Part shown: piece after piece, positions 10,405-26,484 of the stretch
Layout of the letters: every line of letters starts with the position of its first letter
Position numbering within the stretch: position 1 is the first letter of the stretch
Source: Candidatus Omnitrophota bacterium
GTDB taxonomy: Bacteria > Omnitrophota > Gorgyraeia > Gygaellales > Profunditerraquicolaceae
DNA length: 64,000 nt
Direction of reading: 5' to 3'
Assembly (NCBI GenBank): GCA_041661605.1
Contig: JBAZUE010000001.1
Coordinates: 159,467 to 223,466 of the forward strand
The notes under the pieces: model-generated
Told to the model about the DNA's origin: nothing
The model's input: only the letters and a program-made list of their open reading frames with translations
The model's database searches: none
Translations under genes and position numbers: made by a program

Positions 10405-10413
10405 AAATTTAGC

Positions 10414-10438: not shown

Positions 10439-10461
10439 TTATCTATTTTTAAATAAACAAA

Positions 10462-11412
10462 ATGAATTATTTCTTTATTATTGCTATATCGTTTATTATT
10501 GTTTTTTTAATCACTCCGAATATCCGCTACTTTGCTTTGAAATTTTATGTTATCGATAAGGTGAACAAAAGAAAAATCCACAAAAAGTTAGTAACTAAAT
10601 TAGGTGGATTAGGGATTTATTTGGGGTTTTTAGGAGGATTATTCTGTATTGTTATTCTTGATCCGGGTTTTTTCAGAAGCAATTATACTTCAATGCTGGG
10701 CTTGTTAATTGGGGCATCTCTTGTATTAATCCTAGGGATTTATGATGATTTTCAGGGCAGCAGCGCTTTATTGAAATTTATCATTCAAATAATCATTTCT
10801 TCTTTAATTATCAAGTCAGGTTTTCTTCTGAATGCTATCTTTATTCCTCCTTTAATTAATATCGAGTTTGGTATATTCAGTATTCCGGTAACCCTGTTAT
10901 GGTTAGTTGGTATAATTAACGCTGTTAATCTTATTGATGGACTAGATGGATTGGCCGCCGGAGTTATTGGAATCGCATCTTTTTTTATTTTTGTCTTTGG
11001 ATTAATTTTAAGAAATAATTTTGTTATCTACGTATCTTTAGCTTTAGCTGGAGCTTGTTTTGCTTTTCTTAGATATAATTTTCATCCAGCAAAAATATTT
11101 ATGGGAGATACCGGAAGTTTGTTTTTAGGTTTAATTGTGGCGTGCTTGGGAATATACCGGCCAGTTTCTAATTTGAATAATCCTTTTTTTATCCCTGTCG
11201 TAATATTACTTTTTCTACCTATAATAGATACAACTTTTGCCGTCGCCAGAAGAATCCTGCATAAAAGAAATATTTTTTCTGGCGATGCATCCCATATTCA
11301 TCATTATTTGGTGAAGCGTGGGTTTAGCCAAGCACAAGCTGTCTTAAGACTTTATTCCATAACTTTCCTCCTTGGTGTTATATCTTTATTTGTTATATTT
11401 ATATCAAAATAA
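10462..11412 (+). CDS. WecA/MraY-family (GT4) polyprenyl-phosphate hexose/HexNAc-1-phosphate transferase
   Basis: NAVNLIDGLDGLAAG and FMGDTGSLFLG motifs. About 10 TM helices. Confidence 0.85.
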   Translation: MNYFFIIAISFIIVFLITPNIRYFALKFYVIDKVNKRKIHKKLVTKLGGLGIYLGFLGGLFCIVILDPGFFRSNYTSMLGLLIGASLVLILGIYDDFQGSSALLKFIIQIIISSLIIKSGFLLNAIFIPPLINIEFGIFSIPVTLLWLVGIINAVNLIDGLDGLAAGVIGIASFFIFVFGLILRNNFVIYVSLALAGACFAFLRYNFHPAKIFMGDTGSLFLGLIVACLGIYRPVSNLNNPFFIPVVILLFLPIIDTTFAVARRILHKRNIFSGDASHIHHYLVKRGFSQAQAVLRLYSITFLLGVISLFVIFISK

Positions 11413-11426
11413 GTAGACTGCTAAAA

Positions 11427-12733
11427 ATGTTGATTAATAGATTTGTTTTGAATAGAGAAAGATTAATTTTGTATTGTGATTGGGCAATAATAGCCTTTTT
11501 GTGTTTTTTAATTTTTTGCCTTCCGTTTTCCAAAGCAGGTATAGAGAGTTTTGTTTGGCCGGCAATATTTATTTGGATTTTAAAAAGAGTATTGGGATTT
11601 AAGTCTAGTTCCTTATGCGGGATGCTTACGCGGACTCAGTTAAACAGAGTTTTGGGCGTATTTATTGTAGCCAATGTGTTATCGGTGATATTCAGCACTA
11701 ATTTTGGACTATCCCTAAGAGCTTTTTTCGGCAAAGAACTAAAGTTTCTGGCTATATATTTTATGTTGGTTGAGGTTATTAACACTTGGGAGCGACTAAA
11801 AAGTGTTTTAATTGTGATTATCGCTTCAGCTGTATTAGTAACCGCAGATGCGTTAGTGCAATATTTCAGAGGGGTTGATTTTTTAAGAGGCTACTATTGG
11901 AATAGGCTTACTGCTTCTTTTTCAACTGGAGCCGGATTTGCCGGATGGTTAATTGTAGTTATCCCATTGATTTTGGGCATGTTATTAACAGGGAAGGTTG
12001 TAGGTAGAAGATCAAAAACACTGTTGATGATGCTTACTGTTTTGTTATTTACTTGTTTATTGGGAACCTATGCGCGTGGCGCTTGGTTGGGTTTTATAAT
12101 GTCCGTTGTTTTGACGATTGGTTATGTATTTAAGGGGCTAGATCTGAGGATTAAACTGTTATATTCATTCGTCGCTATAGGTGTATTGTCTATATTTTTA
12201 GTTTTGCCTCAATCTCTAAAAGTTAAAGCTACATCTCTTGGTAGGATTGATTTTAAGGCTGGTCAGACAATAAACGCGCGCATAAAATCAACAGCTAGGC
12301 TGGGGGAAGGCTCAATTCTGATTAGATTTAAGCTTTGGAAAGAAAATTTAAAGATAATTAGGGATCATAGTTTTATAGGCTGTGGGTTAATACTTATTCA
12401 ATCGTAGCGCGGGGTTACAAGAGTTTTGAAGGGGGTGGCGTATACTCGCATAATTCCTATCTTCAGATGGCAGCGGAAACAGGTTTATTTGGTTTGCTTA
12501 CATTTCTTTTGATCTTATTTACATTTTTCAAAATCGGGCTACGTTATTTGGGGCAAAGAAAAGATTTCTTAGTTTTGGGTCTTTTATCCGGTATTTTGGC
12601 ATATTTAGTGCATGCTTTTTTTGATACTCACTTTTATTCTTTGCAGCTTGCGGTTTTATTTTGGTATGTGCTTGGTCTGACGATTGCGATAATTAATCTT
12701 AATGCTGACCAGCATCAAAATCTAGGAGGGTAA
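11427..12733 (+). pseudogene. O-antigen ligase/polymerase (Wzy_C) family gene interrupted by a 1-nt frameshift near 12389
   Basis: ORFs 11427..12407 and 12467..12733 are two halves of one protein. The second frame is open from 12371 and reads NTYSIVARGYKSFEGGGVYSHNSYLQMAAETG, which continues ...HSFIGCGL from the first. The intact paralogue at 32053 reads HPFIGVGLNTFS...AHNIYLQTAGEVG. Confidence 0.85.
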
Positions 12734-13510
12734 ATGAAAGTAGTCATTTTAGCCGGCGGCAGGGGTACGAGAATCAGCGAGGAAACAGAGGTATTGCCGA
12801 AACCGATGGTGGAGATTGGAGGAAAGCCGGTTATTTGGCATATTATGAAACTCTATTCTCATTATGGTTTTAATGAATTCATTATTTGTTTGGGTTACAG
12901 GGGCTATATGATAAAGGAGTATTTTTCTCATTATTTTATGCATATGAGCGACGTGACCATAGATTTATCCAAGAATGAAACGAAGATCCATACTACCACT
13001 TCTGAGCCATGGAAGATCACTTTGGTGGATACCGGCTTAGGAACAATGACCGGAAGCAGGCTTAAGAGGGTAGAGAAATATGTAGGGAATCAGAGTTTCC
13101 TTTTAACTTATGGTGACGGGCTGGCTGATATTGATATGGACAAGCTGGTTCAATTCCATAGGGAGAATAAAAAGTTGGCGACACTAACCGCTATTCAGAA
13201 CGTAGGAAGGTTTGGCGTACTGGATATAGATGCCGGAAATCAAGTTTCTTCATTTTTGGAGAAGCCTAAAGGAGAAGGCGGATGGATTAACGGAGGTTTT
13301 TTTGTCCTTGAGCCGGAGGTATTCAATTTTATAGAAAACAATAATACGGTTGTCTGGGAGAAGGAACCTCTTGAGAATTTATCAAGGCAGGGAAAATTAT
13401 GCGCTTATAAGCATACAGGTTTTTGGGGTTGCATGGATACTTTAAGGGACAAGATAAGCTTTGAACAAATTTGGCAATCGGGAAGCGCTCCCTGGAAAGT
13501 ATGGGGTTAA
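12734..13510 (+). CDS. rfbF: Glucose-1-phosphate cytidylyltransferase
   Basis: MKVVILAGGRGTRISEETEVLPKPMVEIGGKPVIWHIMKLYSHYGFNEFIICLGYRGY is the canonical RfbF/DdhA N-terminus. 258 aa. Confidence 0.9.
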   Translation: MKVVILAGGRGTRISEETEVLPKPMVEIGGKPVIWHIMKLYSHYGFNEFIICLGYRGYMIKEYFSHYFMHMSDVTIDLSKNETKIHTTTSEPWKITLVDTGLGTMTGSRLKRVEKYVGNQSFLLTYGDGLADIDMDKLVQFHRENKKLATLTAIQNVGRFGVLDIDAGNQVSSFLEKPKGEGGWINGGFFVLEPEVFNFIENNNTVVWEKEPLENLSRQGKLCAYKHTGFWGCMDTLRDKISFEQIWQSGSAPWKVWG

Positions 13511-13514
13511 TGTT

Positions 13515-14495
13515 ATGAACAATAAATTTTGGAAAGATAAAAGAGTACTCATAACCGGTTTTGAGGGATTCCTGGGCTCTAACCTGACTAAAGCTATCCT
13601 TGGGATGGGGGCGAAAGTAGTCGGATTGGATATCAAAACTTTTCGTAAAGAAACTATCCTTAGCCCGCAGGATTATAAGAAAATGGTTGTTTATAAAGGG
13701 AGTGTTGCTAATTACAGCCTTATTAAAGATATCTTGCGCAAACATTCAATCAATATAATCTTCCATTTAGCCGCAGAAGCAATTGTCAGCCGCAGCCATG
13801 AGAATCCTTCAAAGACGTTTAAATCTAATATAGAAGGGACCTGGAATCTTTTGGAGGCTGCCCGGTGCTATGGCGGCGTAGAAGCTATTGTGGTTGCTTC
13901 AAGCGATAAGGCTTATGGGTCTCATAAGAAACTTCCTTACCGCGAAGAGGCTCCGCTTGTTGCAAACCATCCTTACGATGTTTCTAAAAGCTGCGCTGAT
14001 TTAATAACAAACACATATTCTCACACTTATGGCTTGCCTGCAGCGATTACGCGCTGCGGTAATATTTATGGACCGGGAGATTTTAATTTCAGCCGCCTTA
14101 TTCCTGACGCGATAAGGTGTGTTTTATCCGGGAAAACACTTAAGATACGCAGTGACGGCCAATTTGTGCGCGATTATGTTTATGTTGATGATATTGTTGC
14201 CGGATATATTAAAATAGCTGAACTTATAAAAAAGAACAGTCTTTCTGGTGAAGCCTTTAATCTAAGCGATGAAAAGCCAATAACTGTGCTTAAACTGTTA
14301 AAGGAGATTGATGGGCTTGGACTTTGCGGCAGGAAGCTAAAATATAAGATTATGAATACCGCCAAGTATGAAATTAAAAAACAATATCTTTCTTCGGCAA
14401 AGGCCAGAAGAACTTTAGGCTGGAAGCCCAAGCATAGTATTAAAGAGGGGCTTAAGCAGACGGCTGATTGGTATCGTTCCTTTCTCAGAAAATAA
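13515..14495 (+). CDS. Extended-SDR NAD-dependent sugar dehydratase, CDP-glucose 4,6-dehydratase-like
   Basis: Start moved to the ATG at 13515, just after the rfbF stop. FWKDKRVLITGFEGFLGSNL resembles the RfbG N-terminus. SSDKAYG and YDVSK (YxxxK) catalytic motifs. Sits next to rfbF. Confidence 0.65.
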   Translation: MNNKFWKDKRVLITGFEGFLGSNLTKAILGMGAKVVGLDIKTFRKETILSPQDYKKMVVYKGSVANYSLIKDILRKHSINIIFHLAAEAIVSRSHENPSKTFKSNIEGTWNLLEAARCYGGVEAIVVASSDKAYGSHKKLPYREEAPLVANHPYDVSKSCADLITNTYSHTYGLPAAITRCGNIYGPGDFNFSRLIPDAIRCVLSGKTLKIRSDGQFVRDYVYVDDIVAGYIKIAELIKKNSLSGEAFNLSDEKPITVLKLLKEIDGLGLCGRKLKYKIMNTAKYEIKKQYLSSAKARRTLGWKPKHSIKEGLKQTADWYRSFLRK

Positions 14496-14500
14496 TATTC

Positions 14501-15241
14501 ATGAAAATATATTTCTTAGGCACAAATGGCTGGTGCGATACTGATTTAGGCAATACTCTATGCGTATTGGTTGAAACAAGCCAGGCTTATATAGTTTTTG
14601 ACGCGGGCAATGGTTTATTTAAACTGGATAAATATGTTAAAGATAGACGGCCGATTTATTTATTCTTGAGTCATTTCCATCTGGACCATATTATCGGCCT
14701 GCATGGCCTGAATAAGTTTAGTTTCCCGCAAGGAATAAATATCTTTGGGCCTAAGGGTATAAAGGAGATGTTTAAACTTGTAATTAATACTCCGTATTCT
14801 AAACCAATCCATCAACTTAAAATTAAGGTGAAGGTTGGGGAGATTAATAAAGATTCAAAATTCCCGTTTGATATCAGGTTTAAAAAACTCATCCATACTA
14901 CTGAATGTTATGGTTATCGTTTGTCCGCTGATGATAAAACAATAGCGTTTTGCACAGATACCGGACCATGCAAAGAAATAGAGGTATTGGCTAATAACGC
15001 GGATCTTTTAATAGCTGAATCTTCGCTGCCTCCCGGCAAGATTGATGCCAACTGGCCGCATCTTAATCCTCAGCAAGCTGCTTTGGCAGCTAAGAACGCG
15101 GGGGCCAAGAGATTGGTTTTGGTGCATTTTGATGCCGGAGTATATTTAACAAATAAAGACCGGATCTTGGCTCAAAACGCCGCAAGAAAGATATTTAAGA
15201 ATACATTAGCAGCTGAAGATGGCTTAGTTGAAGTAGTCTAA
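14501..15241 (+). CDS. MBL-fold metallo-hydrolase (RNase Z-like fold)
   Basis: Start moved to the ATG at 14501 (MKIYFLGTNGW). HxHxDH motif LSHFHLDHIIGL. Confidence 0.75.
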   Translation: MKIYFLGTNGWCDTDLGNTLCVLVETSQAYIVFDAGNGLFKLDKYVKDRRPIYLFLSHFHLDHIIGLHGLNKFSFPQGINIFGPKGIKEMFKLVINTPYSKPIHQLKIKVKVGEINKDSKFPFDIRFKKLIHTTECYGYRLSADDKTIAFCTDTGPCKEIEVLANNADLLIAESSLPPGKIDANWPHLNPQQAALAAKNAGAKRLVLVHFDAGVYLTNKDRILAQNAARKIFKNTLAAEDGLVEVV

Positions 15242-16123
15242 ATGAAAAAAGTAAAAGTCGGCATTATCGGAACGGGAAATATTGGCACAGACTTATTGAT
15301 TAAAGTGCAGAGGTCCGATATCCTTGAATGCGGTATTTTCGCGGGGAAAAATCCGGATTCATCTGGGATTAAAAAAGCCAAGTCTATGGGGGTTAAGGTT
15401 TCTTTTGACTCAATTAAGGCTATCCAGGATGAGCCTGATTGCTGCGAGATTGTTTTTGACGCAACTTCGGCTAAGGTCCATTCATTCAATGCCCCGATTT
15501 TAAAACAGTTGGGTAAGTTTACGATTGACCTTACTCCGTCCCAAATAGGCAAAATGTGCGTTCCGGTGATCAACCTGGCGGAATGCCTGAATTGCGATAA
15601 TATCAATCTTGTTACCTGCGGTGGGCAGGCAGTTGTCCCTATAGCCTGCGCTATTATGAAAGTGCATCCTGAAACCGAATATATTGAAGTTGTCGCAAGT
15701 ATTGCTTCGAAATCCGCGGGTTCCGGCACTAGGGCGAACATTGACGAATATACCCAGGCTACTAAGGACGCCATTAGTATTTTTACCGGTGTGCCTAAAG
15801 CCAAGGCGATAATTGTCCTAAATCCGGCAGAGCCGCCCATCCTTATGCACAATACAATATACGCGAAAATTGAGAAACCTAAAATTGAAGAAATCGCAGC
15901 CCAAGTTATGTCTATGGCCAAAAAGATACAAAAATATGTTCCCGGTTATAAAGTTGTCTTGGGGCCTGTGGTTGAAAATAACCGCGTTACCACAATGGTA
16001 GAAGTGGTAGGGTTAGGAGATTTTCTTCCTAAATATTCAGGTAATTTGGATATTATAACCTGCGCAGCAGTGAATGCCGCAGAAGAGTTCGCAAAAAGGA
16101 AGATCTTAAAGTTAAGGAGCTAA
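15242..16123 (+). CDS. Acetaldehyde dehydrogenase (acetylating), DmpF/MhpF type
   Basis: KVKVGIIGTGNIGTDLL, NLVTCGGQA, and SKSAGSGTRANIDEY motifs. About 293 aa. Confidence 0.9.
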   Translation: MKKVKVGIIGTGNIGTDLLIKVQRSDILECGIFAGKNPDSSGIKKAKSMGVKVSFDSIKAIQDEPDCCEIVFDATSAKVHSFNAPILKQLGKFTIDLTPSQIGKMCVPVINLAECLNCDNINLVTCGGQAVVPIACAIMKVHPETEYIEVVASIASKSAGSGTRANIDEYTQATKDAISIFTGVPKAKAIIVLNPAEPPILMHNTIYAKIEKPKIEEIAAQVMSMAKKIQKYVPGYKVVLGPVVENNRVTTMVEVVGLGDFLPKYSGNLDIITCAAVNAAEEFAKRKILKLRS

Positions 16124-16131
16124 ATTTTATT

Positions 16132-17160
16132 ATGGAGAAGGTAGTTTTTTTTGATTCCACTTTACGCGATGGTTCGCATGCTGTCCGCCATCAATTAAGC
16201 GCTGAAAATATCCTGAATTATTGCAGGGGAATTGATGGTGCCGGGCTATATGTTGTTATCGTGGGCCATGGTAATGGTTTGGGCGCTTCTTCGCTGCAAG
16301 TTGGTTTATCCGCGATATCCGACAAGGAGATGCTTTTAACCGCCCGCAAAGGGTTAAAAAAGACAAAGCTTGGTGCATTTCTTATTCCCGGATTTGGAAC
16401 GATAAAAGATGACCTTGAACCGGCAATCGATTCAGGGGTTGAACTTGTTTGCGTGGCAAGCCATTGTACCGAGGCGGATATAACGGCGCAGCATATTGAT
16501 TATGTCAGAAAGCGGGGGAAAGAGGCTTATGGGGTATTAATGATGTATCACATGGCCTCTAAGGAAAGATTATTGGTAGAAGCAAAGAAAATGCAGAATT
16601 ATGGGGCCTTAGGTGTTATTTTAATGGATTCAGCCGGAGCTTCAGATCCAGGTATGGTAGAAGAGGCAGTAAAGTTTTTATCAAAGAACTTAAGTGTTAC
16701 GGTGGGATTTCATGGGCATAATAATTTGGGGTTAGCGGTAGCTAACTCATTAACGGCAATAGAATCCGGAGCAAAAATAATCGATGGGACAGTCCGGGGT
16801 TTTGGCGCCGGCGCAGGCAACTGCCAGCTTGAAGTTTTAGCAGGGTTATTGACCAAGCTGAAGATAGAAACAGGCGTCGACCTCTATAAAATAATGGATG
16901 TGAGTGACGGGATTGTGGCAAAGATTATGCATAAGCCGCAGGAAATAGATTCGGTTGCTTTAATCAGCGGGATTTCCGGAGTTTTTTCCGGTTTTGCGAC
17001 CCATGTCAGGAGGGCGGCAGAACGGTTTGGTGTTGACCCGCGGGATATCTTCGTTGCGTTGGGTAAGAAAAAGATGGTGGCCGGACAAGAAGATTTTATT
17101 GTTGATGTAGCTTTAGAGTTAGCTAATAAAAAAGCCAAAGACCAGGATTTGTCATTTTAG
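16132..17160 (+). CDS. 4-hydroxy-2-oxovalerate aldolase, DmpG/MhpE type
   Basis: FDSTLRDGSHAVRHQ and GFHGHNNLGLAVANS motifs. Immediately follows the DmpF-like gene, the canonical pairing. Confidence 0.9.
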   Translation: MEKVVFFDSTLRDGSHAVRHQLSAENILNYCRGIDGAGLYVVIVGHGNGLGASSLQVGLSAISDKEMLLTARKGLKKTKLGAFLIPGFGTIKDDLEPAIDSGVELVCVASHCTEADITAQHIDYVRKRGKEAYGVLMMYHMASKERLLVEAKKMQNYGALGVILMDSAGASDPGMVEEAVKFLSKNLSVTVGFHGHNNLGLAVANSLTAIESGAKIIDGTVRGFGAGAGNCQLEVLAGLLTKLKIETGVDLYKIMDVSDGIVAKIMHKPQEIDSVALISGISGVFSGFATHVRRAAERFGVDPRDIFVALGKKKMVAGQEDFIVDVALELANKKAKDQDLSF

Positions 17161-17179
17161 CCAAAGATGGAGGCGTCTG

Positions 17180-17929
17180 ATGCTTAAAAAATCATTAAAA
17201 AACGGGTCATTTGTTTTAGGGACGTGGTGTGATTTACCAAGCCCGGCAGTTGTCAATGTATTAGCTAAGGCCGGATTGGATTTTGTTATTATCGATATGG
17301 AGCATGGACCGATGGATTATAGAATTGCCCAGAATATGGTTATGGCCGCTGAATGCGAAGGAGCAGAAGCCTTGGTGCGTGTTCCATGTTTGGATGAATC
17401 AGAAATATTGCGCGCTTTAGATATAGGTTCAGCCGGGGTTATTGTTCCTCACATTGAAAGCGTAGAAGACAGAAAAAAGGCTGTTGCTTACAGCAAATTT
17501 ACTCCTGTTGGGAAGAGAGGGTTTAACCCTTATGTGCGTAGCGGTGGATATTGCAAAGCTGACCGGGAATATTTTAACAAACAAAATGAAAAAACAATCC
17601 TGGGGTTGATTTTAGAAGGCGTAGGGGCTTTAAAAAATTTAGAAGCTATCATTGATGACCCCCATATAGATCTAATCTATATTGGTACTTATGATTTATC
17701 CGCAGCTTTAGGGTTGGCCGGTGATGTTGGGCATCCTAAGGTATTAAAAGAATTGGAAAAGGCAACAACTAAAATAATAAAAGCCAAGAAAAGCGCCGGC
17801 TGCATGATCCATAGTTTCTCGGATTTGGCAAAGTTTAAGAAATTGGGCATTCAGTTTATCACTTATAAAGTAGACAGCGCGATTATCTATGAGGCGGTTG
17901 CCGGGATTAAAAGGGAGTTTACCCGATGA
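17180..17929 (+). CDS. HpcH/HpaI-family class II (pyruvate) aldolase
   Basis: GTWCDLPSPAVVNVLAKAGLDFVIIDMEHGP, VRVP and IVPHIES motifs typical of the HpcH/HpaI/citrate-lyase-beta family. Confidence 0.8.
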   Translation: MLKKSLKNGSFVLGTWCDLPSPAVVNVLAKAGLDFVIIDMEHGPMDYRIAQNMVMAAECEGAEALVRVPCLDESEILRALDIGSAGVIVPHIESVEDRKKAVAYSKFTPVGKRGFNPYVRSGGYCKADREYFNKQNEKTILGLILEGVGALKNLEAIIDDPHIDLIYIGTYDLSAALGLAGDVGHPKVLKELEKATTKIIKAKKSAGCMIHSFSDLAKFKKLGIQFITYKVDSAIIYEAVAGIKREFTR

Positions 17930-19731
17930 TGAAGCTATCCGATTATATGGTTAAGTTTTTGGAAGACAATGGTGTCAAGGATGTTTTTATGCTAACCGGC
18001 GGCGGCTGTATGCATTTAGTGGATTCATTCGGGAAATCAAAAAAAATTAAATATCTTTGCGCTCACCATGAACAAGCTTGCGCAATGGCTGCTGAGGCCT
18101 ACGCTAAATTTAAAAATGATTTAGGGGTGGTTTTGGTTACAAGTGGTCCCGGCGTGACAAATGCTTTAACCGGCCTGGTAGGGGCATTTCAGGACTCGGC
18201 TCCCTGTTTATTTATCTCGGGCCAGTCCAAAAGGCGCCAGACTGTTTTTAATGAAAAAGAGGCAAAGTTGCGTCAATTCGGCACACAAGAAGTTAATGCT
18301 ATCCCCATGGTGGAATCTGCCTGTAAATTTTCAATTATGGTTAATGAGCCGGAAAAGATCCGCTATTATCTTGAGAAGGCCCTCTATTTAGCTAAGAATG
18401 GAAGGCCCGGGCCTGTTTGGCTGGATGTCCCGCTTGATGTTCAAAGCTCTCAGGTTGACGAGGCCAATCTCCAGAGGTTTGATCCTTCAGAGTTGGAAAG
18501 CAGCTTTAAGCGTAAATTAACAGATGCGGAGCTGTTAAGTATATCCAGCTACTTTAAGAAAGCAAAACGCCCCATGATTATAGCCGGCCATGGTATAAGG
18601 CTGGCCGGCGCCTGTTCTGAATTAGTTGCATTTGCAGACAGATTTAATATTCCCGTTGTTACAACTATACTGGGTATCGATGTCATCCCTACGGGTAATA
18701 AAAACTATGCAGGCAGGATTGGGATCAAGGGAACGCGGGCAGGTAATTTTGCCATACAAAATGCGGACCTTATTTTGAGCATAGGCTCAAGGCTGGCTGT
18801 GCCTGTTGTGGGGCATGAATATAAATTATTTGCCAGGGAGGCTAAAGTTATAGTTGTGGATATTGACCCTGAAGAACACAAGAAGAAAACAATCCGTATT
18901 GATAAATTTGTCCAGGCAGACGCAGGTATTTTTATAAAAGAAATCCAGAAATATTTTAAAAAGGATGGAATAGGAATATCAAAAACCTGGCTGGCACGAT
19001 GCTTGAATTGGAAACGAAAATACCCGGTTTGCCTGCCGCAATATAAAAAAGCAAATGGCGATATTAACTTATATTATTTTGTTGAAACATTAAATAAGAA
19101 AATAAAATCCGATATGCCTGTAATTTCTGATGCCGGTTCTGTTTTTTATGCTGTTTCCCAGGGGGTTAATATCAAGAAGGGGCAGCGTTATATTACTTCC
19201 GGGGCTTTAGCAACAATGGGTTTTAGCCTGCCGGCGGCTATAGGAGTTTGTATTGCTAATAATCGGAAGAGTGTTGCCGCCATAACCGGAGATGGCTCTT
19301 TTCAGTTAAATATTCAAGAGCTGCAAACAATTATTCATTATAAACTGCCGGTTAAGATTTTCGTAATCAATAATAACGGCTATTTATCTATACGCCAGAC
19401 ACAGGCAAGATTCTTTAATTCGCATTTTGTCGGGGAGGGTGTTCGCTCCGGGGTTTCTTTCCCCGATATTAGAAAGATAGCTTTCGCGTATGGCATTAAG
19501 TATATCAAGTTAACATGCGCTAATTTATCCAAAGGCCTGGATCAAGCCTTAAAAGACAATGTTCCGGTTATCTGCGAGGTCAAATCTCCAGAGAACCAGC
19601 AAATTATCCCCACTAACACAGCAGAGATCGGACCTAACGGAGTTATGGCTTCAAAGCCATTGGAGGATATGTTTCCTTTCTTAGATAGAAAGATTTTTCT
19701 TTCAGAAATGATAGTAAAGCCGGTTGGTTAA
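17926..19731 (+). CDS. Thiamine-diphosphate-dependent enzyme, acetolactate-synthase-like (YerE-like)
   Basis: N-terminal Pyr domain (HHEQACAMAAEAYAK, VTSGPGVTNA). C-terminal ThDP/Mg motif GDGSFQLNIQELQT...NNNGY. 601 aa. Confidence 0.85.
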   Translation: MMKLSDYMVKFLEDNGVKDVFMLTGGGCMHLVDSFGKSKKIKYLCAHHEQACAMAAEAYAKFKNDLGVVLVTSGPGVTNALTGLVGAFQDSAPCLFISGQSKRRQTVFNEKEAKLRQFGTQEVNAIPMVESACKFSIMVNEPEKIRYYLEKALYLAKNGRPGPVWLDVPLDVQSSQVDEANLQRFDPSELESSFKRKLTDAELLSISSYFKKAKRPMIIAGHGIRLAGACSELVAFADRFNIPVVTTILGIDVIPTGNKNYAGRIGIKGTRAGNFAIQNADLILSIGSRLAVPVVGHEYKLFAREAKVIVVDIDPEEHKKKTIRIDKFVQADAGIFIKEIQKYFKKDGIGISKTWLARCLNWKRKYPVCLPQYKKANGDINLYYFVETLNKKIKSDMPVISDAGSVFYAVSQGVNIKKGQRYITSGALATMGFSLPAAIGVCIANNRKSVAAITGDGSFQLNIQELQTIIHYKLPVKIFVINNNGYLSIRQTQARFFNSHFVGEGVRSGVSFPDIRKIAFAYGIKYIKLTCANLSKGLDQALKDNVPVICEVKSPENQQIIPTNTAEIGPNGVMASKPLEDMFPFLDRKIFLSEMIVKPVG

Positions 19732-19736
19732 TTAAG

Positions 19737-20633
19737 ATGAAGAAAAAGATCGCTATATTGGGGGCAACAAGCCATATTGCCAAAGGGTTAATCCTGAACT
19801 TTAGGCAAAGCAAAGAAAATGAATTGTTTTTGTTTGCCCGCTCCCCTAATAAGGTGAGAGAATTCTTGAAAGATAATGGCGCGCCATTGAATCGCCATAT
19901 TTCTGAATTTAAATATTTCCAGAGGACTGAATATGATGTTGTAATCAATTGTGTAGGCCTGGGAACGCCGGTAAAAGTTAAAGAAGCAAACGCAGAGGTA
20001 TTCAGACTAACAGAAGAATTTGACAATATAGCTTTAGAATATCTACATAGACATCCTAAAACTCTTTATATAAATTTTAGCAGCGGGGCGGTTTACAGTG
20101 TATCTGTGGACGAGATAAAACCGGAACATTATTACGGGATAGCAAAATTGCATCAGGAAGCAAAGCATCGAGCTTTAGGGGAGTTTAATATTGTTGATAT
20201 AAGGCTATTTTCGTATTTTAGCCGTTTCATAGAGATGGATTCCGGGTATTTTCTAACCGAATTGATAAAGAGCTTAAAAAAGAAAAAGGCCTTTATTACT
20301 AATTCCTGCGATTTTACGCGGGATTTCATCGCGTCTTCTGATCTTTTTAACTTAATCTGTTTGATTATAAAAGCCAGGCCTTTTAATGGTGTTTTTGATG
20401 CCTATAGTTCTAAGCCGGTTAGTAAATTTAAATTGCTTGACTATTTTGTTAAGAATCATTCTTTAAAATATATTATTAACCAGAAGCTTAAGCTTGTTTG
20501 CCCAACAGGGATAAAAATCCGGTATTGCCCTGATTCGAGGAAAGCAGAGAGGTTGGGATATAAGCCGAGATTCTCTTCCATGGAAGCAGTAGCAATGGAA
20601 TCAAAGTATATACTTGGGGTAACTAATGCATAA
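19737..20633 (+). CDS. NAD(P)-dependent SDR-type sugar reductase/epimerase (YerF-like role possible)
   Basis: N-terminal Rossmann motif IAILGATSHIAKGL and YGIAK (YxxxK). Lies between the ThDP enzyme and rfbH. Confidence 0.6.
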   Translation: MKKKIAILGATSHIAKGLILNFRQSKENELFLFARSPNKVREFLKDNGAPLNRHISEFKYFQRTEYDVVINCVGLGTPVKVKEANAEVFRLTEEFDNIALEYLHRHPKTLYINFSSGAVYSVSVDEIKPEHYYGIAKLHQEAKHRALGEFNIVDIRLFSYFSRFIEMDSGYFLTELIKSLKKKKAFITNSCDFTRDFIASSDLFNLICLIIKARPFNGVFDAYSSKPVSKFKLLDYFVKNHSLKYIINQKLKLVCPTGIKIRYCPDSRKAERLGYKPRFSSMEAVAMESKYILGVTNA

Positions 20634-21939
20634 ACAGGATAGTATCAGGAAAAAGATATTAAAGCAGGTAAAGGAATATTTTGCTTGTCAGAAGAAGGAA
20701 GAGTTTGTTTGTGGGCAAACGCGTATTCCTTATGCCGGCAGAATTTATGATGAAAGGGAATTGGTTGCTTTAGTGGATGCTTCGCTTGACTTTTGGCTTA
20801 CCGCAGGCAGGTATGCGGATAAGTTTGAGAAGAGTTTTGCCGCTTTCTTAGGAGTAAAATACTGCCTTTTGACAAATTCCGGTTCTTCGGCAAATCTTTT
20901 GGCGGTTTCAGCCTTGACCTCACCCTTATTAAAGAGCAGGCAATTAAAACCGGGGGATGAAGTTATCACTATCGCCTGTGGCTTTCCTACCACATTGAAC
21001 CCGATTTTGCAGAATAAACTTGTGCCTGTGTTTGTGGATGTAGAATTGGAGACATATAATATACAAGTTGAAAAGATAGAAAAGGCCATTACTAAAAGGA
21101 CAAAAGCTATATTTATCGCGCATACATTGGGAAACCCGGCAAATTTAGAAAAAATTATGAGAGTTGTAAGGAAACACGGCCTTTGGTTGTGCGAAGATAA
21201 CTGCGATAGCTTAGGTTCAAAATATAAAGGTAAATATACCGGTTCCTTTGGAGATATTTCTACTTGTAGTTTTTTCCCTGCCCATCATATCACTATGGGG
21301 GAAGGCGGGGCAGTCTTGACCAACAACCCGCTGTTAAAAAGGATAATAACCTCTTTTCGCGACTGGGGAAGGGATTGTTACTGTGATTCCGGAAGGGAGA
21401 ATGCTTGCGGAAACCGATTCTCTCAAAAGTTCGCAGGGCTGCCATACGGGTATGATCACAAATATGTTTATTCTCATATAGGATATAACCTTAAGATTAC
21501 TGATATGCAGGCTGCCATAGGGACAGCACAGCTGGAGAAATTGCCCGGATTTATCTCGGCACGGAAGAAGAATTTCTCAATTCTGAAGGGGGCGCTAAAG
21601 AAATATACTAAATACTTAATTTTACCCGAGGCTACCAAAAAATCAGATCCCAGCTGGTTTGGTTTCCCGATTTTAGTGAGAAAAGACGCGCCTTTTACCA
21701 GAAATGATATTATTAACTGCCTTGAAAAGAATAAAATTTCCACCAGGATGCTTTTTGGCGGGAACCTGACTAAGCAGCCGGCATATAAGGATGAGAAATA
21801 CAGGATATCCGGAGATCTGAAAAACACTGATTTAGTTATGAATAATCTTTTTTGGATAGGGGTATATCCGGGTATTGATAAAAGGCGCTTAAAGTATATT
21901 TGCGCCAGTTTTGATAATTTCTTTAGGAAGAATAAATGA
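20626..21939 (+). CDS. rfbH: CDP-6-deoxy-L-threo-D-glycero-4-hexulose 3-dehydrase (E1), RfbH/DdhC
   Basis: 437 aa. LTNSGSSANLLA, ITIACGFPTT, FFPAHHITMGEGG (His in place of the aminotransferase Lys) and FRDWGRDCYC are hallmark RfbH features. Confidence 0.9.
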   Translation: MHKQDSIRKKILKQVKEYFACQKKEEFVCGQTRIPYAGRIYDERELVALVDASLDFWLTAGRYADKFEKSFAAFLGVKYCLLTNSGSSANLLAVSALTSPLLKSRQLKPGDEVITIACGFPTTLNPILQNKLVPVFVDVELETYNIQVEKIEKAITKRTKAIFIAHTLGNPANLEKIMRVVRKHGLWLCEDNCDSLGSKYKGKYTGSFGDISTCSFFPAHHITMGEGGAVLTNNPLLKRIITSFRDWGRDCYCDSGRENACGNRFSQKFAGLPYGYDHKYVYSHIGYNLKITDMQAAIGTAQLEKLPGFISARKKNFSILKGALKKYTKYLILPEATKKSDPSWFGFPILVRKDAPFTRNDIINCLEKNKISTRMLFGGNLTKQPAYKDEKYRISGDLKNTDLVMNNLFWIGVYPGIDKRRLKYICASFDNFFRKNK

Positions 21940-23474
21940 TTTTAATTAACACATCCTCTAAGGATGCTTTAAAAATCTTTCAGCCCTTTTTGCCTGTATC
22001 TGTCCCTATAGGAATAGGCTGCCTTGCTGCTTTTGCACTGCGGGAGAAAATTAATGTAAAGATTATTGATGAGCAGGTAGAAGATAATGTTTTGGAGCTT
22101 GTTTCCGAATATGTAAAAGATTTGCCTCATCCGTATATCTTTGGGTTCAGCGTGTTGACGGCAGGATATAAGAGCGCGATTTTACTTTCGGAGAAACTAA
22201 AAAGGATTTATCCGGATTCAGTAATTGTGTTTGGCGGGATTCATTCGAGCGCCTGTCCTGATGATATTTTATCGTATAGGCATATAGATGCTGTTATAAG
22301 AGGGGAAGGAGAGAAGGCACTGGTTGAATTTTATAGATGTGTTAAAGAAGGAAAAGAATTTACACATTTGGACGGTTTATCTTATAGAAAGAACGGAGTT
22401 ATAACGCATAATAAGATAGCTTTAGAAGCGGTTAGTTTAAATGAGATGCCCGCTTTTCCGTATTATCTTTTTAAATCTAAGCGTTATGATCTTAGTTTTG
22501 TGGTTGGCTCCCGCGGTTGTCCTTATAGATGCATATTTTGCAGTAATAGGGTAACTACCGGGAAGAAGTACAGGTATGCTTCAACAAAAAGCATAATCCA
22601 GGATTTAGGCTGGGTTTACAACCAGTATTTAGCCAAAAATCCGGGAAAAGGCAACGTGCAGTTTCTTGACGATAACCTATTGGTGAATAAAGAAAGAATC
22701 TATGAGCTTATAGATCAAATAAAAATACAAGGTTTTGATAAGAAAATGACTTTTAGTTTTCAGGCCAGAGGAGATAATGTAAATTATAAGTTATTGCAAG
22801 ACCTGTATGAGGCGGGATTTAAAAGTGTTTTCTTCGGTTTAGAAACTGCCTCAGAGAGGATTATGAAGATTATTAAGAAGGATGAAACAGTAGCTAAATG
22901 CGTAGAAGCTGTAAAGATGGCCAAGCAAATAGGTTTTTATGTAAGCGCTACTTTCATTTATGGGCTTCCGGGTGATTCGCATAAGGATAGAATTGATTGT
23001 TTGAGATTAAGCAAAGAATTGAAATTAGATATGGTGCGGTATAATAATGCTACCCCTTATCCTGGTACAGAATTATACGAAATAGCTAAAAGTGAAAATC
23101 GCATCAGAATAGAGGGGTTATTTGAAAACTTTATTTCAGTTTCTACTTTTATTGAGAGCCCTTTTCGCCCGATCCCTTTCTCATACGTTCCGGCCGGCAG
23201 TTCTGAAAACGAGATCAGGAATGATTTGCTCTATAGTTATTTTGTTTTTTACCTTGATTTTAATAAACTTAAGCAAATATTTACTGATCCAAATAAAGGA
23301 GCGGGCTGGTTTAATGCCGGAGAAACAACAATAAATTTAATTAAGAAGTTTCCTGCTTTGCTGCTATTAGGCGTAAATATATCCATAAAATTTTATAAAT
23401 TACTACTTAGCATGCTGATCGATAAGATTGTAATAAAATTCAGGCCAAGGGAGGGGATGATTAATGCCAGATAA
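21936..23474 (+). CDS. Class-B (B12-binding-domain) radical SAM protein
   Basis: B12-type N-domain (IFGFSVLTAGY...VFGGIHSS). CxxxCxxC motif GSRGCPYRCIFC. Overlaps rfbH by 4 nt. Confidence 0.85.
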   Translation: MILINTSSKDALKIFQPFLPVSVPIGIGCLAAFALREKINVKIIDEQVEDNVLELVSEYVKDLPHPYIFGFSVLTAGYKSAILLSEKLKRIYPDSVIVFGGIHSSACPDDILSYRHIDAVIRGEGEKALVEFYRCVKEGKEFTHLDGLSYRKNGVITHNKIALEAVSLNEMPAFPYYLFKSKRYDLSFVVGSRGCPYRCIFCSNRVTTGKKYRYASTKSIIQDLGWVYNQYLAKNPGKGNVQFLDDNLLVNKERIYELIDQIKIQGFDKKMTFSFQARGDNVNYKLLQDLYEAGFKSVFFGLETASERIMKIIKKDETVAKCVEAVKMAKQIGFYVSATFIYGLPGDSHKDRIDCLRLSKELKLDMVRYNNATPYPGTELYEIAKSENRIRIEGLFENFISVSTFIESPFRPIPFSYVPAGSSENEIRNDLLYSYFVFYLDFNKLKQIFTDPNKGAGWFNAGETTINLIKKFPALLLLGVNISIKFYKLLLSMLIDKIVIKFRPREGMINAR

Positions 23475-24405
23475 GAGCACGAAATTTTCTATAGTTACTC
23501 CTTGTTATAATGAAGAAGAAAATGTGGAGTTGCTTTATAATAAAGTAAAAGAAGTATTCAGCCAGCTGGGGGAAAACGATTACGAGCATATTTTTATAGA
23601 TAACGCGTCAACGGATAATACGGTAAAAATATTAAAATCAATAGCCCGGGAAGATAAAAACCTGAAGATTATCGTAAATTCGAGGAATTTTGGCCATATA
23701 AGATCGCCTTTTTACGGTTTACTGCAAGGAAGCGGAGATGCGGTAATTTTCTTGGCCTCTGATTTACAGGATCCTCCGGGAATGATAAAAGATTTTATAT
23801 TAAAATGGAAAGAGGGATATAAAATTGTATTGGGCGTAAAAAAAGAAAGCAAGGAGTCAAGATGGATGTTTTCCGTAAGGAAATTATTCTATAATTTGAT
23901 AGGTGCTATTTCTGAAATAGACCATATTAAAAATTTTACAGGTTTTGGATTGTATGATAAGAAAATAATCCAAATTCTCAGGAATATCGATGATCCTTAT
24001 CCATATTTCAGGGGTTTAGTTTGCGATATTGGTTTTGAAATCTTTACCATTGAGTTTGTGCAGCCAGCACGTAAAAAAGGGATAACTAAGAATAATTTCT
24101 ATTCTTTGTATGATATGGCTATGTTAGGTATAACTAATCATTCAAAAGTTCCATTGCGCCTGGCTACTATGTTAGGGTTTCTCGCTGCGCTTAGCAGCTT
24201 CTTTGTCGCCGTGGTGTATTTAATATATAAGGTTATTTTCTGGCAAAGTTTTACCGTAGGTACCGCTCCTATAGTAATAGGGCTGTTCTTTTTTTCCGCG
24301 GTTCAACTTTTCTTCATTGGTATTATTGGTGAATATATCGGTTCTATACATACGCAAGTATTAAAGCGTCCTTTAGTAATTGAAAAGGAAAGAATAAATT
24401 TCTAA
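23464..24405 (+). CDS. GT2 polyprenyl-phosphate glycosyltransferase with C-terminal TM helices (ArnC/GtrB-like)
   Basis: FSIVTPCYNEEENV, IDNASTDNT and ASDLQDPP motifs. Two C-terminal hydrophobic helices, as in ArnC/GtrB. Confidence 0.8.
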   Translation: MPDKSTKFSIVTPCYNEEENVELLYNKVKEVFSQLGENDYEHIFIDNASTDNTVKILKSIAREDKNLKIIVNSRNFGHIRSPFYGLLQGSGDAVIFLASDLQDPPGMIKDFILKWKEGYKIVLGVKKESKESRWMFSVRKLFYNLIGAISEIDHIKNFTGFGLYDKKIIQILRNIDDPYPYFRGLVCDIGFEIFTIEFVQPARKKGITKNNFYSLYDMAMLGITNHSKVPLRLATMLGFLAALSSFFVAVVYLIYKVIFWQSFTVGTAPIVIGLFFFSAVQLFFIGIIGEYIGSIHTQVLKRPLVIEKERINF

Positions 24406-26484
24406 ATGATAAATTTTATAATAGAAGCCGTAATTGTAACGGCCAGTTCCTGGTTGTTAACAAGAAAATATTTTGGCATACGTTTATTAAGCGATGCAAT
24501 TTTAGTTTCGTTTATATTATTATTTGCCCAGATTGTTTTAGTAGAACTTTTGCTGGGTGTTGCCGGACAACTTTATTTCCTAAATGTCCTTTTAGCGCAC
24601 GCAGCTATCTTGCTAATAATTTATTTAATCTATTTTCGTAAGGAAGCGCCACCGCTTGAGAAACTAAACGTTGAGCCATTTATCAATAGCAATCTTCTGC
24701 TTCTTGCCGCCTCAATTTTCTTCTCCTTTTTTTTAGTAAAATTATTTAGCAATTTGATTAATCCTCCTTTAAGCCCTGACAGCCTGCAAGTGCATCTTGC
24801 TTTTCCCGCTACCTGGATTACAAATGGAAATCTGGATAATCCGATAAATATATTTGGTTCGTTGCCTATCCTGAAACCAGGAACATTGGAGACTTGTTCG
24901 TCTTCTTATTATCCCATCAATGCTCAATTGTTTTTTACATGGCTTATGCTGCCATTAAGGAATGCTTTCTTGGCGGATGCGGGGGAGGCTCCATTTTACA
25001 TTATCGGCATAGTGGCTGTATACGCAATATTAAGGAAGTATGATGTAAATAGGGTAATGGCTTTGTTGAGCGGTTTTCTTTGGGTGCTTATTCCAAGTAT
25101 CTTTAAGCAGCTTAGGACGGGTTCCTTAATTGACGTTATTTGCGCAGTGCTGTTTCTTTTAGTATTCAATGCTCTTTTATTGCTTAAACTGGATTTTTCT
25201 CTTAAAAATGCGGCCTTGTTTGGTATTGCAACCGGGCTTTTTGTCGGAACTAAGATTATTAACCTTGCATGGTTACTTGCGCTTGTGCCATTAGCCTGCT
25301 ACATATTATATAGAAAAGTAAAAGAAAGCAAATTTGAATTGAGCAAGGTACTTAGTATCTTAGCGGTTATTGTTTCAATGATTATTTTGTTTGGATGTTT
25401 CGTATATTTAAAAAATTATTTTATCCTTGGGAATCCTTTATTTCCTGTCGAGTTGAGAATTTTTGGTAAAACTATCTTCAAGGGGTTGCTTGACAACGCT
25501 GCATATAAATCTCAAGTTGCCGGTTGGAAATTAGATTTCATGAAAATGATTTTTAAGGAGGGGTTAGGTTTACAATTTATCGCTTTAATCCTGCCTTGCA
25601 CTTTTATCCCGGTAATCTTTTATAAATATCTAAAGGCCAAGGTTTTGTCTTTGGGCGGATATTTGTTGCTTTTTGCTACGCCATTTTTTATGCTTATCTT
25701 ATACAGCTTTTTTATAAATATATACACTTCGCGATATTTTTTCCCGTATTTAAGTTTTGGGTTATTAACTGCGGTAATTTTTATTACTAAATTACCGCGG
25801 GGAGATAAATATTTAGCCGCTATTTCATTTATATCTATTCTCAGCGCAGCTTTTGAATTAGCTAACCGGTATGAGTTGGTTTCTTCAATTTTACTTTCTT
25901 TAGCAGTTTTTATTTTATTATTTCTTTATAAGAAGCAAGTATCCATTTTTTATAGAAGTAAAAATTTTAGCAGGATTATGTTGGCGGTGTTATTGGCCGG
26001 GTTTTTATTTCTTACTTATCTGAATAATAGGTATGATAAAGAAGAATTTTCCCGCTATCCCTTGAGTTTTCCTAAGAGGGAGGCCTGGCAATCTGATATA
26101 GGAAGGGGCTGGAAGGCGCTTAATGAGCTGACTAAGGGGGGCTCGCGCATTGCCTATACGGGAAGAATGGAGTTTTATCCTTTATTCGGCTCGGGTCTTA
26201 AGAATACAGTAAAGTATGTTTCTATTAATGCAAAGGAAGTAACTGCTTATAATAAGCCTGACGGTCTATTCCGGAAAACCCGGGATTTTACGGCCTGGAG
26301 AGAAAATCTGAAAAAAGGAAGAATTGAATATTTGTTTATAGCGCTGCCTTTTTTTGATAATAGAGAGTCAGAGGATCCGAAAAAGTTTCCAATTGAAGAT
26401 GAATGGGCCGGCGCTCACCCGGATGATTTTGAGTTAATATTTAGTAATTCATTATCGCGAATATATAAGGTTTTGATCAAATAA
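24406..26484 (+). CDS. Large polytopic membrane protein, GT-C-like (paralogue of 28622..30670)
   Basis: 692 aa with many TM segments. First-loop motif NPPLSPDSLQVHLAFP and a soluble C-terminal domain. Start codon directly abuts the GT2 stop. Confidence 0.5.
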   Translation: MINFIIEAVIVTASSWLLTRKYFGIRLLSDAILVSFILLFAQIVLVELLLGVAGQLYFLNVLLAHAAILLIIYLIYFRKEAPPLEKLNVEPFINSNLLLLAASIFFSFFLVKLFSNLINPPLSPDSLQVHLAFPATWITNGNLDNPINIFGSLPILKPGTLETCSSSYYPINAQLFFTWLMLPLRNAFLADAGEAPFYIIGIVAVYAILRKYDVNRVMALLSGFLWVLIPSIFKQLRTGSLIDVICAVLFLLVFNALLLLKLDFSLKNAALFGIATGLFVGTKIINLAWLLALVPLACYILYRKVKESKFELSKVLSILAVIVSMIILFGCFVYLKNYFILGNPLFPVELRIFGKTIFKGLLDNAAYKSQVAGWKLDFMKMIFKEGLGLQFIALILPCTFIPVIFYKYLKAKVLSLGGYLLLFATPFFMLILYSFFINIYTSRYFFPYLSFGLLTAVIFITKLPRGDKYLAAISFISILSAAFELANRYELVSSILLSLAVFILLFLYKKQVSIFYRSKNFSRIMLAVLLAGFLFLTYLNNRYDKEEFSRYPLSFPKREAWQSDIGRGWKALNELTKGGSRIAYTGRMEFYPLFGSGLKNTVKYVSINAKEVTAYNKPDGLFRKTRDFTAWRENLKKGRIEYLFIALPFFDNRESEDPKKFPIEDEWAGAHPDDFELIFSNSLSRIYKVLIK

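Follow-up and report, generated by a model that had tools for sequence, protein, structure and literature searches.

A candidate pathway to a C4-branched 3,6-dideoxyhexose with two pyruvate aldolases in an Omnitrophota envelope-glycan locus

Why should genes for a cytidine diphosphate (CDP)-activated deoxysugar share a locus with aldolase and dehydrogenase genes that look as if they belonged to a catabolic pathway? This question is raised by nine co-directional + strand genes packed closely at positions 12734–21939 of a 64-kb window, that is, the whole stretch of Candidatus Omnitrophota bacterium contig JBAZUE010000001.1 that was analysed here. An earlier first-pass annotation of this DNA had listed the nine genes, and open reading frame (ORF) calls and family profiles recovered all of them with the same coordinates and strand. 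In the following list, SDR denotes short-chain dehydrogenase/reductase, MBL metallo-beta-lactamase and ThDP thiamine diphosphate.

12734..13510, + strand: RfbF, glucose-1-phosphate cytidylyltransferase, which makes CDP-glucose (TIGR02623 equivalog, 413.7 bits against a cut-off of 300)
13515..14495, + strand: nucleoside diphosphate (NDP)-hexose 4,6-dehydratase-like SDR, presumed CDP-glucose 4,6-dehydratase (TIGR02622, 220 bits; cut-off 278)
14501..15241, + strand: small MBL-fold hydrolase of the RNase Z/YhfI/PhnP phosphodiesterase branch (PF12706; HFHLDH (HxHxDH) motif intact)
15242..16123, + strand: DmpF/BphJ/ErwJ-like acylating acetaldehyde dehydrogenase, acetyl-CoA to acetaldehyde (TIGR03215, 390.9 bits against 282)
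16132..17160, + strand: DmpG/BphI/ErwI-like class II pyruvate aldolase (TIGR03217, 390.3 bits against 286)
17180..17929, + strand: HpaI/HpcH-type class II pyruvate aldolase, which probably makes the direct ThDP donor (PF03328)
17926..19731, + strand: YerE/JanthE/ErwE-like ThDP carboligase of 601 aa (three TPP domains; under all acetolactate-synthase cut-offs)
19737..20633, + strand: SDR occupying the YerF/ErwF position and presumed to reduce the C1' ketone of the side chain (PF01370)
20626..21939, + strand: E1/RfbH/DdhC, pyridoxamine phosphate- and [2Fe-2S]-dependent CDP-4-keto-6-deoxyglucose 3-dehydrase (NF011936, 727.7 bits against 423)

The intergenic spacing stays between −11 and +19 nt from rfbF (12734) to at least 30670, and we therefore regard these genes as one operon; the ATG starts at 13515 (SDR) and 14501 (MBL) were preferred over longer TTG ORFs because gaps of 4–5 nt result. 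As judged from gene content, the operon probably makes a CDP-activated 3,6-dideoxy-4-C-(polyhydroxyalkyl)hexose of the erwiniose/caryophyllose class of “acyl-branched” sugars. Its product would very probably be a rare cell-surface sugar with a multi-carbon hydroxyalkyl side chain at C4.

The general route to such sugars was already published in 2022, when it was proposed and partly demonstrated for erwiniose and proposed for caryophyllose: in the “unifying scheme” of Steitz et al., an aldolase makes the 2-oxo acid donor for a YerE-like ThDP enzyme (PMC9306805). ErwE of Pectobacterium atrosepticum accepts 4-hydroxy-2-oxopentanoate, prefers its 4R form and rejects pyruvate; the adjacent BphI/BphJ-like pair ErwI (aldolase) and ErwJ (acetaldehyde dehydrogenase) was proposed as the donor source, and ErwF was proposed to reduce the ErwE product to erwiniose (PMC9306805). 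Caryophyllose in Mycobacterium marinum needs both MMAR_2331, of the aldolase/citrate-lyase family, and the ThDP enzyme MMAR_2332, and similar clusters occur in M. gastri (MygI/MyGE) and Rhodopseudomonas palustris CGA009 (PMC9306805). The window follows this pattern on both sides, with a YerE-like ThDP carboligase beside RfbF, the dehydratase-like SDR and E1, and with DmpF, DmpG and HpcH directly upstream of the ThDP gene in conserved synteny. The suggestion of the first-pass annotation that the catabolic-looking genes supply a 2-oxo acid donor, giving a branch beyond hydroxyethyl, is thus supported, yet it was anticipated by this scheme (PMC9306805). What is added here is the architecture with two aldolases, a ThDP clade matched to it, a signature in DmpG, a modular donor slot and a wide taxonomic spread. 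In literature searches, we found no published case pairing DmpFG with an HpaI-type aldolase and nothing relevant on this gene combination in O-antigen or flagellin loci.

Does the gene combination recur elsewhere? A genome scan for relatives of the ThDP enzyme gave listed matches of 31–45% identity. Among these, at least 64 species-genome loci carry relatives of 36–45% identity; RfbF and E1 lie within 10 kb in about half of the 64 loci, and an ArnC/PgfS-like glycosyltransferase of family 2 (GT2) is present in many. The listed relatives of at most 34% identity are acetolactate-synthase-like and have no sugar genes nearby. The DmpF-DmpG-HpcH triad was found, among the matches listed, in Pedobacter, Mucilaginibacter and a Roizmanbacteria metagenome-assembled genome, and DmpFG without HpcH in two or three loci. 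Pedobacter psychrophilus is one of the triad carriers. The order DmpF-DmpG-HpcH-ThDP is kept in the related loci L087, L001, L006 and L002/L003, with identities of 46–77%. In L087, an Elusimicrobia-labelled contig, ten genes, MBL and GT2 among them, are arranged exactly as in the window (53–77% identity). In L001 (Omnitrophota) and L006, the four genes stand beside RfbF, a dehydratase and E1. Triad genes also occur in L028, L046 and L053, and the same genes are present in Bacteroidota and Patescibacteria loci.

A further example comes from L002/L003, where DmpF-DmpG-HpcH-ThDP-SDR together with RfbF and E1 (7350–16786) come directly behind genes for flagellin, a Maf-like (MptE-like) protein and a GT2, and precede NeuB-type genes. 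These contigs carry a protein labelled Roseburia faecis, found in 1551 blocks of the metagenome collection (very common), and a long-branched sugar may decorate the flagellin of this common gut commensal. Altogether, synteny with CDP-sugar genes was seen in more than ten loci with labels from at least five phyla, and the adjacency is not due to chance, because many unrelated genomes show this synteny. The recurrence check suggested by the first-pass annotation thus came out in favour of a cassette in CDP-sugar loci across phyla, including a flagellin locus. The contrary outcome that it had also considered, DmpFG/HpcH genes in aromatic-catabolic operons of relatives, was not seen; the genes stay beside ThDP and CDP-sugar genes.

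What varies between these loci is the content of one slot. Omnitrophota-type loci share RfbF, the SDR, the MBL gene, the ThDP enzyme and the following SDR, and most also have E1; the genes directly before the ThDP gene are as follows.

L008: none
L091, L092: DmpF-DmpG
Window, L087: DmpF-DmpG-HpcH
L090 (7765–9927): NeuB-like/cupin fusion and a 206-aa ORF
L088 (4497–7983), L089 (4518–8001): Fer4/LdpA_C, HAD phosphatase, HMGL-like/MptE-like fusion, then HpcH

L088 and L089 represent a different locus type without the MBL gene, and their slot contents, like those of L090, imply further side chains. In a neighbour-joining tree, the ThDP enzymes of the window, L087, L001, L006 and L002 form a triad clade with 100/100 bootstrap support, and those of DmpFG-only loci form another clade. 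The comparison with L091 is the most direct: RfbF, SDR, DmpF, DmpG and E1 are 70–88% identical to those of the window, whereas the ThDP enzyme is only 46% identical and HpcH is missing. The ThDP lineage thus appears to track donor-gene content. Given that the lineage follows the slot content and that there is a 4-nt overlap between the stop codon of HpcH and the ThDP start, the HpcH and ThDP genes seem to travel as a unit, from which we infer that the HpcH product, not the DmpG product, is the direct donor in the window cassette. The HpcH gene is also located immediately before the ThDP gene in L001, L002, L006 and L087–L089.

As a separate observation, a 4.3-kb contig assigned to Candidatus Altiarchaeales archaeon A3 encodes ThDP and HpcH homologues with consecutive locus tags (P0024/P0305; 68% and 64% identity, respectively), reflecting either transfer to archaea or a binning error. 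HpcH-ThDP gene fusions were considered as evidence of coupling and rejected, as none of the ~850-aa ThDP homologues is fused to HpcH. The ThDP fusions that do occur (P0128, P0138, P0158, P0242, P0152, P0200, P0250) have either ~250-aa unassigned N-terminal extensions, two of them with weak cupin matches, or C-terminal HAD, S-adenosylmethionine (SAM) methyltransferase or radical SAM/SPASM domains.

The window ThDP enzyme itself carries the catalytic Glu and the canonical GDG motif. Its closest solved relative is the YerE-like JanthE (8rph, 412 bits); PpYerE (5ahk) reaches 270 bits and acetolactate synthases at most 245 bits. Against the acetolactate-synthase model TIGR00118, it scores 375.6 bits at a cut-off of 538, and the remaining models of this kind are likewise under their cut-offs. 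No ilv genes (ilvN/ilvC) were found among the scanned window ORFs, the gene-content scans covering ORFs of at least 100 aa across the 64 kb. In the tree, the enzyme falls within a clade of CDP-sugar-locus members, and acetolactate-synthase-like loci make up a separate clade; the grouping with acetolactate synthases that had been considered as a counter-indication was thus not seen. An SDR-fold gene follows the ThDP gene in the window and in most relatives. The window SDR (19737) has counterparts of 44–58% identity in the same position in L087, L008, L092 and L006, while L001, L002 and L005 have a different SDR there; its YerF/ErwF-like role is presumed from position.

Next, we consider the three donor genes. 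The catalytic Cys of DmpF lies in VTCGGQA, aligned to 1nvm_B, and DmpF identity amounts to 63–75% in the main triad and pair cassettes and 48–52% in L028 and L053. DmpG enzymes join pyruvate and acetaldehyde to 4-hydroxy-2-oxopentanoate. Alignment of the window DmpG to 1nvm shows conserved Arg12, Asp13 and His16 and the HGH motif with two metal histidines; the communication domain PF07836 is present. The same alignment places Phe83, Ile85 and Phe285 at BphI positions Leu87, Leu89 and Tyr290. Phe at the Tyr290 position and Phe, Tyr or His at the Leu87 position were found in 11/11 sugar-cluster DmpG examined (window plus ten homologues), whereas the four solved catabolic enzymes have Tyr at 290 and Leu at 87. 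In BphI, Tyr290 and Leu87 enforce 4S specificity, Y290F abolishes it, Y290F with L87W or L87N gives a 4R-specific enzyme, and Leu89 limits aldehyde length (PMC3962088). Based on Phe at the Tyr290 and Leu87 sites and Ile at Leu89, we predict that synthesis starts from a short aldehyde and has a 4R-selective (or non-4S) outcome, which would fit the preference of ErwE for the 4R donor (PMC9306805). The window DmpG holds neither the 4S determinants Tyr290/Leu87 nor catabolic meta-cleavage neighbours.

For HpcH, residues H42/R67/E146/D172 align with the catalytic and metal residues H45/R70/E149/D175 of HpaI. The HpaI, GarL and YfaU equivalogs match at 101–138 bits, under cut-offs of 369–441, so HpcH is a member of this family whose named specificity is not given by the models. 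A role as CoA-ester lyase of the CitE/malyl-CoA lyase type feeding DmpF was rejected, as only HpaI/GarL/YfaU models match and the HpaI catalytic residues are kept.

The acceptor side of the pathway is more conventional. RfbF shows 51–88% identity across related cassettes. The SDR at 13515 always comes next after rfbF in Omnitrophota-type loci, and canonical RfbG fills its place in other loci. It carries YDVSK (YxxxK) and SSDKAYG (the Asp-Lys dehydratase pair) and, among solved relatives, is about equally near dTDP- and CDP-glucose dehydratases (6bi4, 162 bits; 1rkx, 139 bits). It is 4,6-dehydratase-like and has the expected motifs, but the CDP-glucose dehydratase cut-off was not reached (220 against 278). 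E1 scores 562 bits against the Yersinia pseudotuberculosis E1 structure 3bcx and keeps all four Cys of the [2Fe-2S] cluster motif C-x57-C-x-C-x7-C; the motif AHHITMGEGG, with His in place of the aminotransferase Lys, was confirmed as first noted.

E1 raises the question of its reductase. In agreement with the first-pass annotation, no E3-type gene (Fer2/FAD_binding_6/NAD_binding_1; AscD/DdhD) was found among the scanned ORFs of the window, and none was found in the Pfam gene lists of the related loci L001–L006 and L087–L092. The missing E3 is hence a feature of the related loci with inspected gene lists and no oddity of the window. There is a precedent in SpnQ, an E1-type enzyme served by general ferredoxin/flavodoxin reductase pairs (PMC8987622). 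The MBL protein as a substitute for E3 was rejected as unlikely, since its fold relatives are zinc phosphodiesterases, it has no flavin or Fe-S domain, and it is absent from several E3-less cassettes.

How could these enzymes work together? Judging by strong homology, RfbF would form CDP-glucose, the SDR at 13515 would dehydrate it to CDP-4-keto-6-deoxyglucose, and E1 would remove the 3-hydroxyl group to give CDP-4-keto-3,6-dideoxyglucose, with electrons presumably from general ferredoxin or flavodoxin systems, as no E3 is encoded. On the donor side, DmpF would reduce acetyl-CoA to acetaldehyde, which DmpG would join with pyruvate to 4-hydroxy-2-oxopentanoate, probably in the 4R form. The HpaI-type aldolase would then carry out a second pyruvate aldol addition and supply the 2-oxo acid used by the ThDP enzyme, which would decarboxylate this donor and attach the resulting acyl anion at C4 of the keto sugar. 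Reduction of the new side-chain ketone would fall to the SDR at 19737, and an ArnC/PgfS-like GT2 would load the sugar on polyprenyl phosphate for lipopolysaccharide (LPS) or another envelope glycan outside the cytoplasm. An adjacent protein with about 13 transmembrane (TM)-like segments may perform the attachment step.

The exact donor can be named only tentatively. In the version that we favour, 4-hydroxy-2-oxopentanoate would be decarboxylated to 3-hydroxybutanal, which HpcH would join with pyruvate to 4,6-dihydroxy-2-oxoheptanoate, leading to a C6 1,3,5-trihydroxyhexyl branch; we regard this as possible rather than probable. Two linked ideas, an iterative aldol-decarboxylation-aldol triad yielding a 4-C-(1,3,5-trihydroxyhexyl)-3,6-dideoxyhexose and a plug-in donor slot with matching ThDP lineages, are, taken together, likewise speculative. 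We know of no description of such a trihydroxyhexyl sugar.

The catalytic residues of E1, DmpF, DmpG, HpcH and the ThDP enzyme are intact, in support of an acyl-branched sugar as the product. Several points weigh against this reading or its details. The dehydratase-like SDR and HpcH score under their equivalog cut-offs, no dedicated gene is encoded for the decarboxylation that the C6 version requires, and the published literature offers no case explaining HpcH beside DmpG. Triad-linked ThDP enzymes do not form one clade overall, with L028/L046 and L053 placed elsewhere in the tree, and L088/L089 join a similar HpcH (53–54% identity) to a different ThDP lineage. The likeness to ErwE/I/J and MMAR_2331/2332 is drawn from published descriptions.

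Comparison with known systems helps to place the cassette. In common with the erwiniose pathway, it has genes for CDP-4-keto-3,6-dideoxyglucose next to a DmpG/DmpF-like pair, to the gene of a YerE-like ThDP enzyme and to that of a presumed reductase, and the donor would be an aldolase-made 4-hydroxy-2-oxo acid. It differs in the HpaI-type aldolase inserted between DmpG and the ThDP gene, in the additional MBL hydrolase, B12-binding radical SAM enzyme and polyprenyl-phosphate-type GT2, and in a ThDP lineage distinct from the DmpFG-only cassettes examined. With the caryophyllose cluster of M. marinum and the clusters of R. palustris CGA009 and M. gastri, the window shares an HpcH-family aldolase gene adjoining the ThDP gene; there, according to the proposal, pyruvate and an aldehyde are condensed by the aldolase to a long polyhydroxylated 2-oxo acid, which the ThDP enzyme joins at C4. 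In the published descriptions of those clusters, however, there is one aldolase and no DmpF/DmpG pair, and their aldehyde partners are hydroxylated C4–C5 aldehydes, whereas acetyl-CoA-derived acetaldehyde is the only aldehyde source encoded in the window. The yersiniose A system of Yersinia pseudotuberculosis (YerE/YerF) has the RfbF/dehydratase/E1 arm and, presumably, ThDP-dependent C4 branching and ketoreduction in common with the window, but YerE uses pyruvate for a C2 branch without aldolase genes, Yersinia encodes an E3 reductase, and PpYerE is a distant relative of the window ThDP enzyme compared with JanthE. The meta-cleavage complexes DmpFG/BphIJ, in turn, agree with the window pair in fold, catalytic residues, communication domain, the catalytic Cys of the dehydrogenase and equivalog cut-offs passed; the window pair differs by its presumed synthetic direction, Phe at the Tyr290 position and the lack of catabolic partner genes.

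Which alternatives have to be weighed against a donor made by HpcH? For an erwiniose-like product with a C4 1,3-dihydroxybutyl branch, the DmpFG product 4-hydroxy-2-oxopentanoate would itself be the ThDP donor. HpcH would then be auxiliary, whether as a stereochemically relaxed second source of this acid, as an epimerising catalyst by retro-aldol/aldol reaction or by supplying an alternative donor. This matches the published scheme with its BphI/BphJ-like pair beside ErwE (PMC9306805), and HpcH-less DmpFG-ThDP cassettes do occur, both with an otherwise shared Omnitrophota backbone (L091, L092) and in other settings (L019, L064); moreover, according to cited literature, HpaI can form 4-hydroxy-2-oxopentanoate without stereocontrol. 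Yet HpcH is strictly conserved across phyla with its stop overlapping the ThDP start. The triad ThDP lineage is only 45–46% identical to DmpFG-only ThDP enzymes, although DmpF/DmpG are 70–73% identical there, against 59–77% in triad loci, and this divergence of the ThDP lineages despite similar DmpF/DmpG argues for a different donor. An epimerase also seems unnecessary, because DmpG already has the substitutions expected for 4R output. We consider this alternative rather unlikely.

A YerE-like reaction of the ThDP enzyme on pyruvate, giving a yersiniose-type acetyl/hydroxyethyl branch while the aldolase/dehydrogenase genes serve to form another substituent of the glycan (such as an ether, ketal or acyl group derived from a hydroxy-oxo acid), is clearly improbable. 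Most ThDP homologues in CDP-sugar loci, among the matches listed, have no aldolase neighbours, so the family can use common 2-oxo acids, and both JanthE and MyGE accept pyruvate. In the cassettes, however, donor genes directly precede the ThDP gene in every architecture seen (DmpFG, DmpFG with HpcH, NeuB-like, HMGL-like fusion with HpcH) and the ThDP lineage co-varies with them, the conserved module has no transferase for a separate substituent, and ErwE, the characterised enzyme with a DmpFG-like neighbour, rejects pyruvate (PMC9306805). Accidental adjacency, in which part of an aromatic meta-cleavage operon and an acetolactate synthase for branched-chain amino acids had come to lie in a polysaccharide locus, is hardly credible and was excluded because of the synteny survey (more than ten CDP-sugar loci, at least five phyla by label): although DmpF and DmpG pass equivalog cut-offs trained on catabolic enzymes and acetolactate-synthase models are the best NCBIfam matches of the ThDP enzyme, that score is far under the cut-off (376 against 538), no ilvN, ilvC, hydratase or dioxygenase gene was found among the scanned window ORFs, the genes are spaced as in a single operon, and DmpG lacks the catabolic Tyr290.

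If the operon makes an acyl-branched sugar, how is it handed on? Three further genes follow directly after E1.

21936..23474, + strand: B12-binding radical SAM enzyme (PF02310 and PF04055; its start overlaps the rfbH stop by 4 nt)
23464..24405, + strand: ArnC/PgfS/GtrB-like GT2 with two C-terminal TM helices, presumed CDP-sugar:polyprenyl-phosphate transferase
24406..26484, + strand: 692-aa protein with ~13 TM-like segments, no gap after the GT2 gene

The GT2 protein combines an N-terminal GT2 domain with two TM-like segments. Among NCBIfam models, PgfS (188 bits) and ArnC (124 bits) match it best, each scoring under its cut-off. Homologues of 45–66% identity lie within ~9 kb of many ThDP genes, mostly 1–4 kb downstream; GtrA adjoins the homologue in L004 and L006 and was not found in the window. 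This points to a putative polyprenyl-phosphate-linked intermediate and attachment outside the cytoplasm. The 692-aa protein has no Pfam or NCBIfam match and may tentatively be regarded as a periplasmic (GT-C-like) transferase or a flippase for the lipid-linked sugar.

The B12-binding radical SAM enzyme may tailor the sugar, e.g. by C-methylation. At a threshold of E ≤ 1e-8 with 60% or more of the protein covered, it is not conserved in the cassette loci, with the exception of a weak 27% match upstream in L092. Other radical SAM genes are also present in the glycan cluster, so that four occur in all (74–1144, 3786–5219, 21936–23474 and 27220–28617; one plain and three B12-binding), and a similar gene was seen in L092. 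This unusual density suggests radical C-methylation or other sugar tailoring.

The MBL gene is an accessory gene. Its AlphaFold2 model (pLDDT 87) gave 1y44, 6kns, 1zkp and 6b9v as best Foldseek matches. The gene follows the dehydratase-like SDR in L087, L008, L091 and L092, is separated from it by a GT2 gene in L090, and in L004 has rfbH on one side and the ThDP gene on the other. Omnitrophota very commonly have this gene, which accompanies CDP-sugar genes with or without aldolases.

The operon is part of a + strand envelope-glycan cluster that occupies bases 1–34.7 kb of the window. The cluster contains several GT2 genes, a WecA/MraY-like GT4, two Wzy_C genes, a DUF2079 gene, methyltransferases, two GT9 heptosyltransferase genes (LPS core) and large family-less multi-span membrane proteins. 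Three of these large proteins without a Pfam family, with 9–13 TM-like segments (7864–9480, 24406–26484 and 28622–30670), are candidate GT-C-type transferases or polymerases for lipid-linked sugars. Beyond 34.7 kb, the window holds housekeeping genes (priA, fmt, gap-pgk-tpi-secG, bcd-etfBA, smc).

Directly upstream of rfbF, a Wzy_C gene (O-antigen ligase/polymerase-like, 11427–12733) shows a frameshift near 12380–12407. Its conserved C-terminal part (HNSYLQMAAETG) runs on in another frame to a TAA right before the rfbF ATG, so that the gene is either a pseudogene or affected by an assembly error. A 326-nt “intergenic gap” before rfbF was accordingly rejected as a promoter region, since it encodes this out-of-frame 3' end. 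Elsewhere, an AbiEii-type nucleotidyltransferase toxin gene and a helix-turn-helix protein gene form a pair (34843–36062) between both GT9 heptosyltransferase genes. The fmt gene for methionyl-tRNA formyltransferase (44509–45443) appears as two overlapping ORFs that split Formyl_trans_N between them, due to a frameshift or sequencing error, and a tandem GalT/HIT-like (DUF4921) gene pair (45513–47538) adjoins the glycolytic gap-pgk-tpi block.

Deoxysugars with long C-branches are rare, their chemical detection is difficult, and in the few pathogens known to have them (Yersinia, Pectobacterium, Mycobacterium marinum) they are of immunological importance. The genetic signature described here is widespread in uncultivated phyla and is present in the flagellin locus of an abundant human-gut commensal. 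The modular versions should encode different side chains, and the scheme of 2022 would be extended well beyond (myco)bacterial pathogens. This does not overturn current understanding and represents a useful extension rather than a surprise. For producing chiral tertiary alcohols out of functionalised 2-oxo acids, the conserved two-aldolase version with its matched ThDP clade offers candidate biocatalysts, and the natural Tyr-to-Phe DmpG variants are candidate 4R-selective pyruvate aldolases. If the donor-slot idea holds, the different slot contents would together diversify the side chains of surface glycans in Omnitrophota, Elusimicrobia, Patescibacteria, Bacteroidota and gut Firmicutes, including the flagellin of Roseburia faecis.

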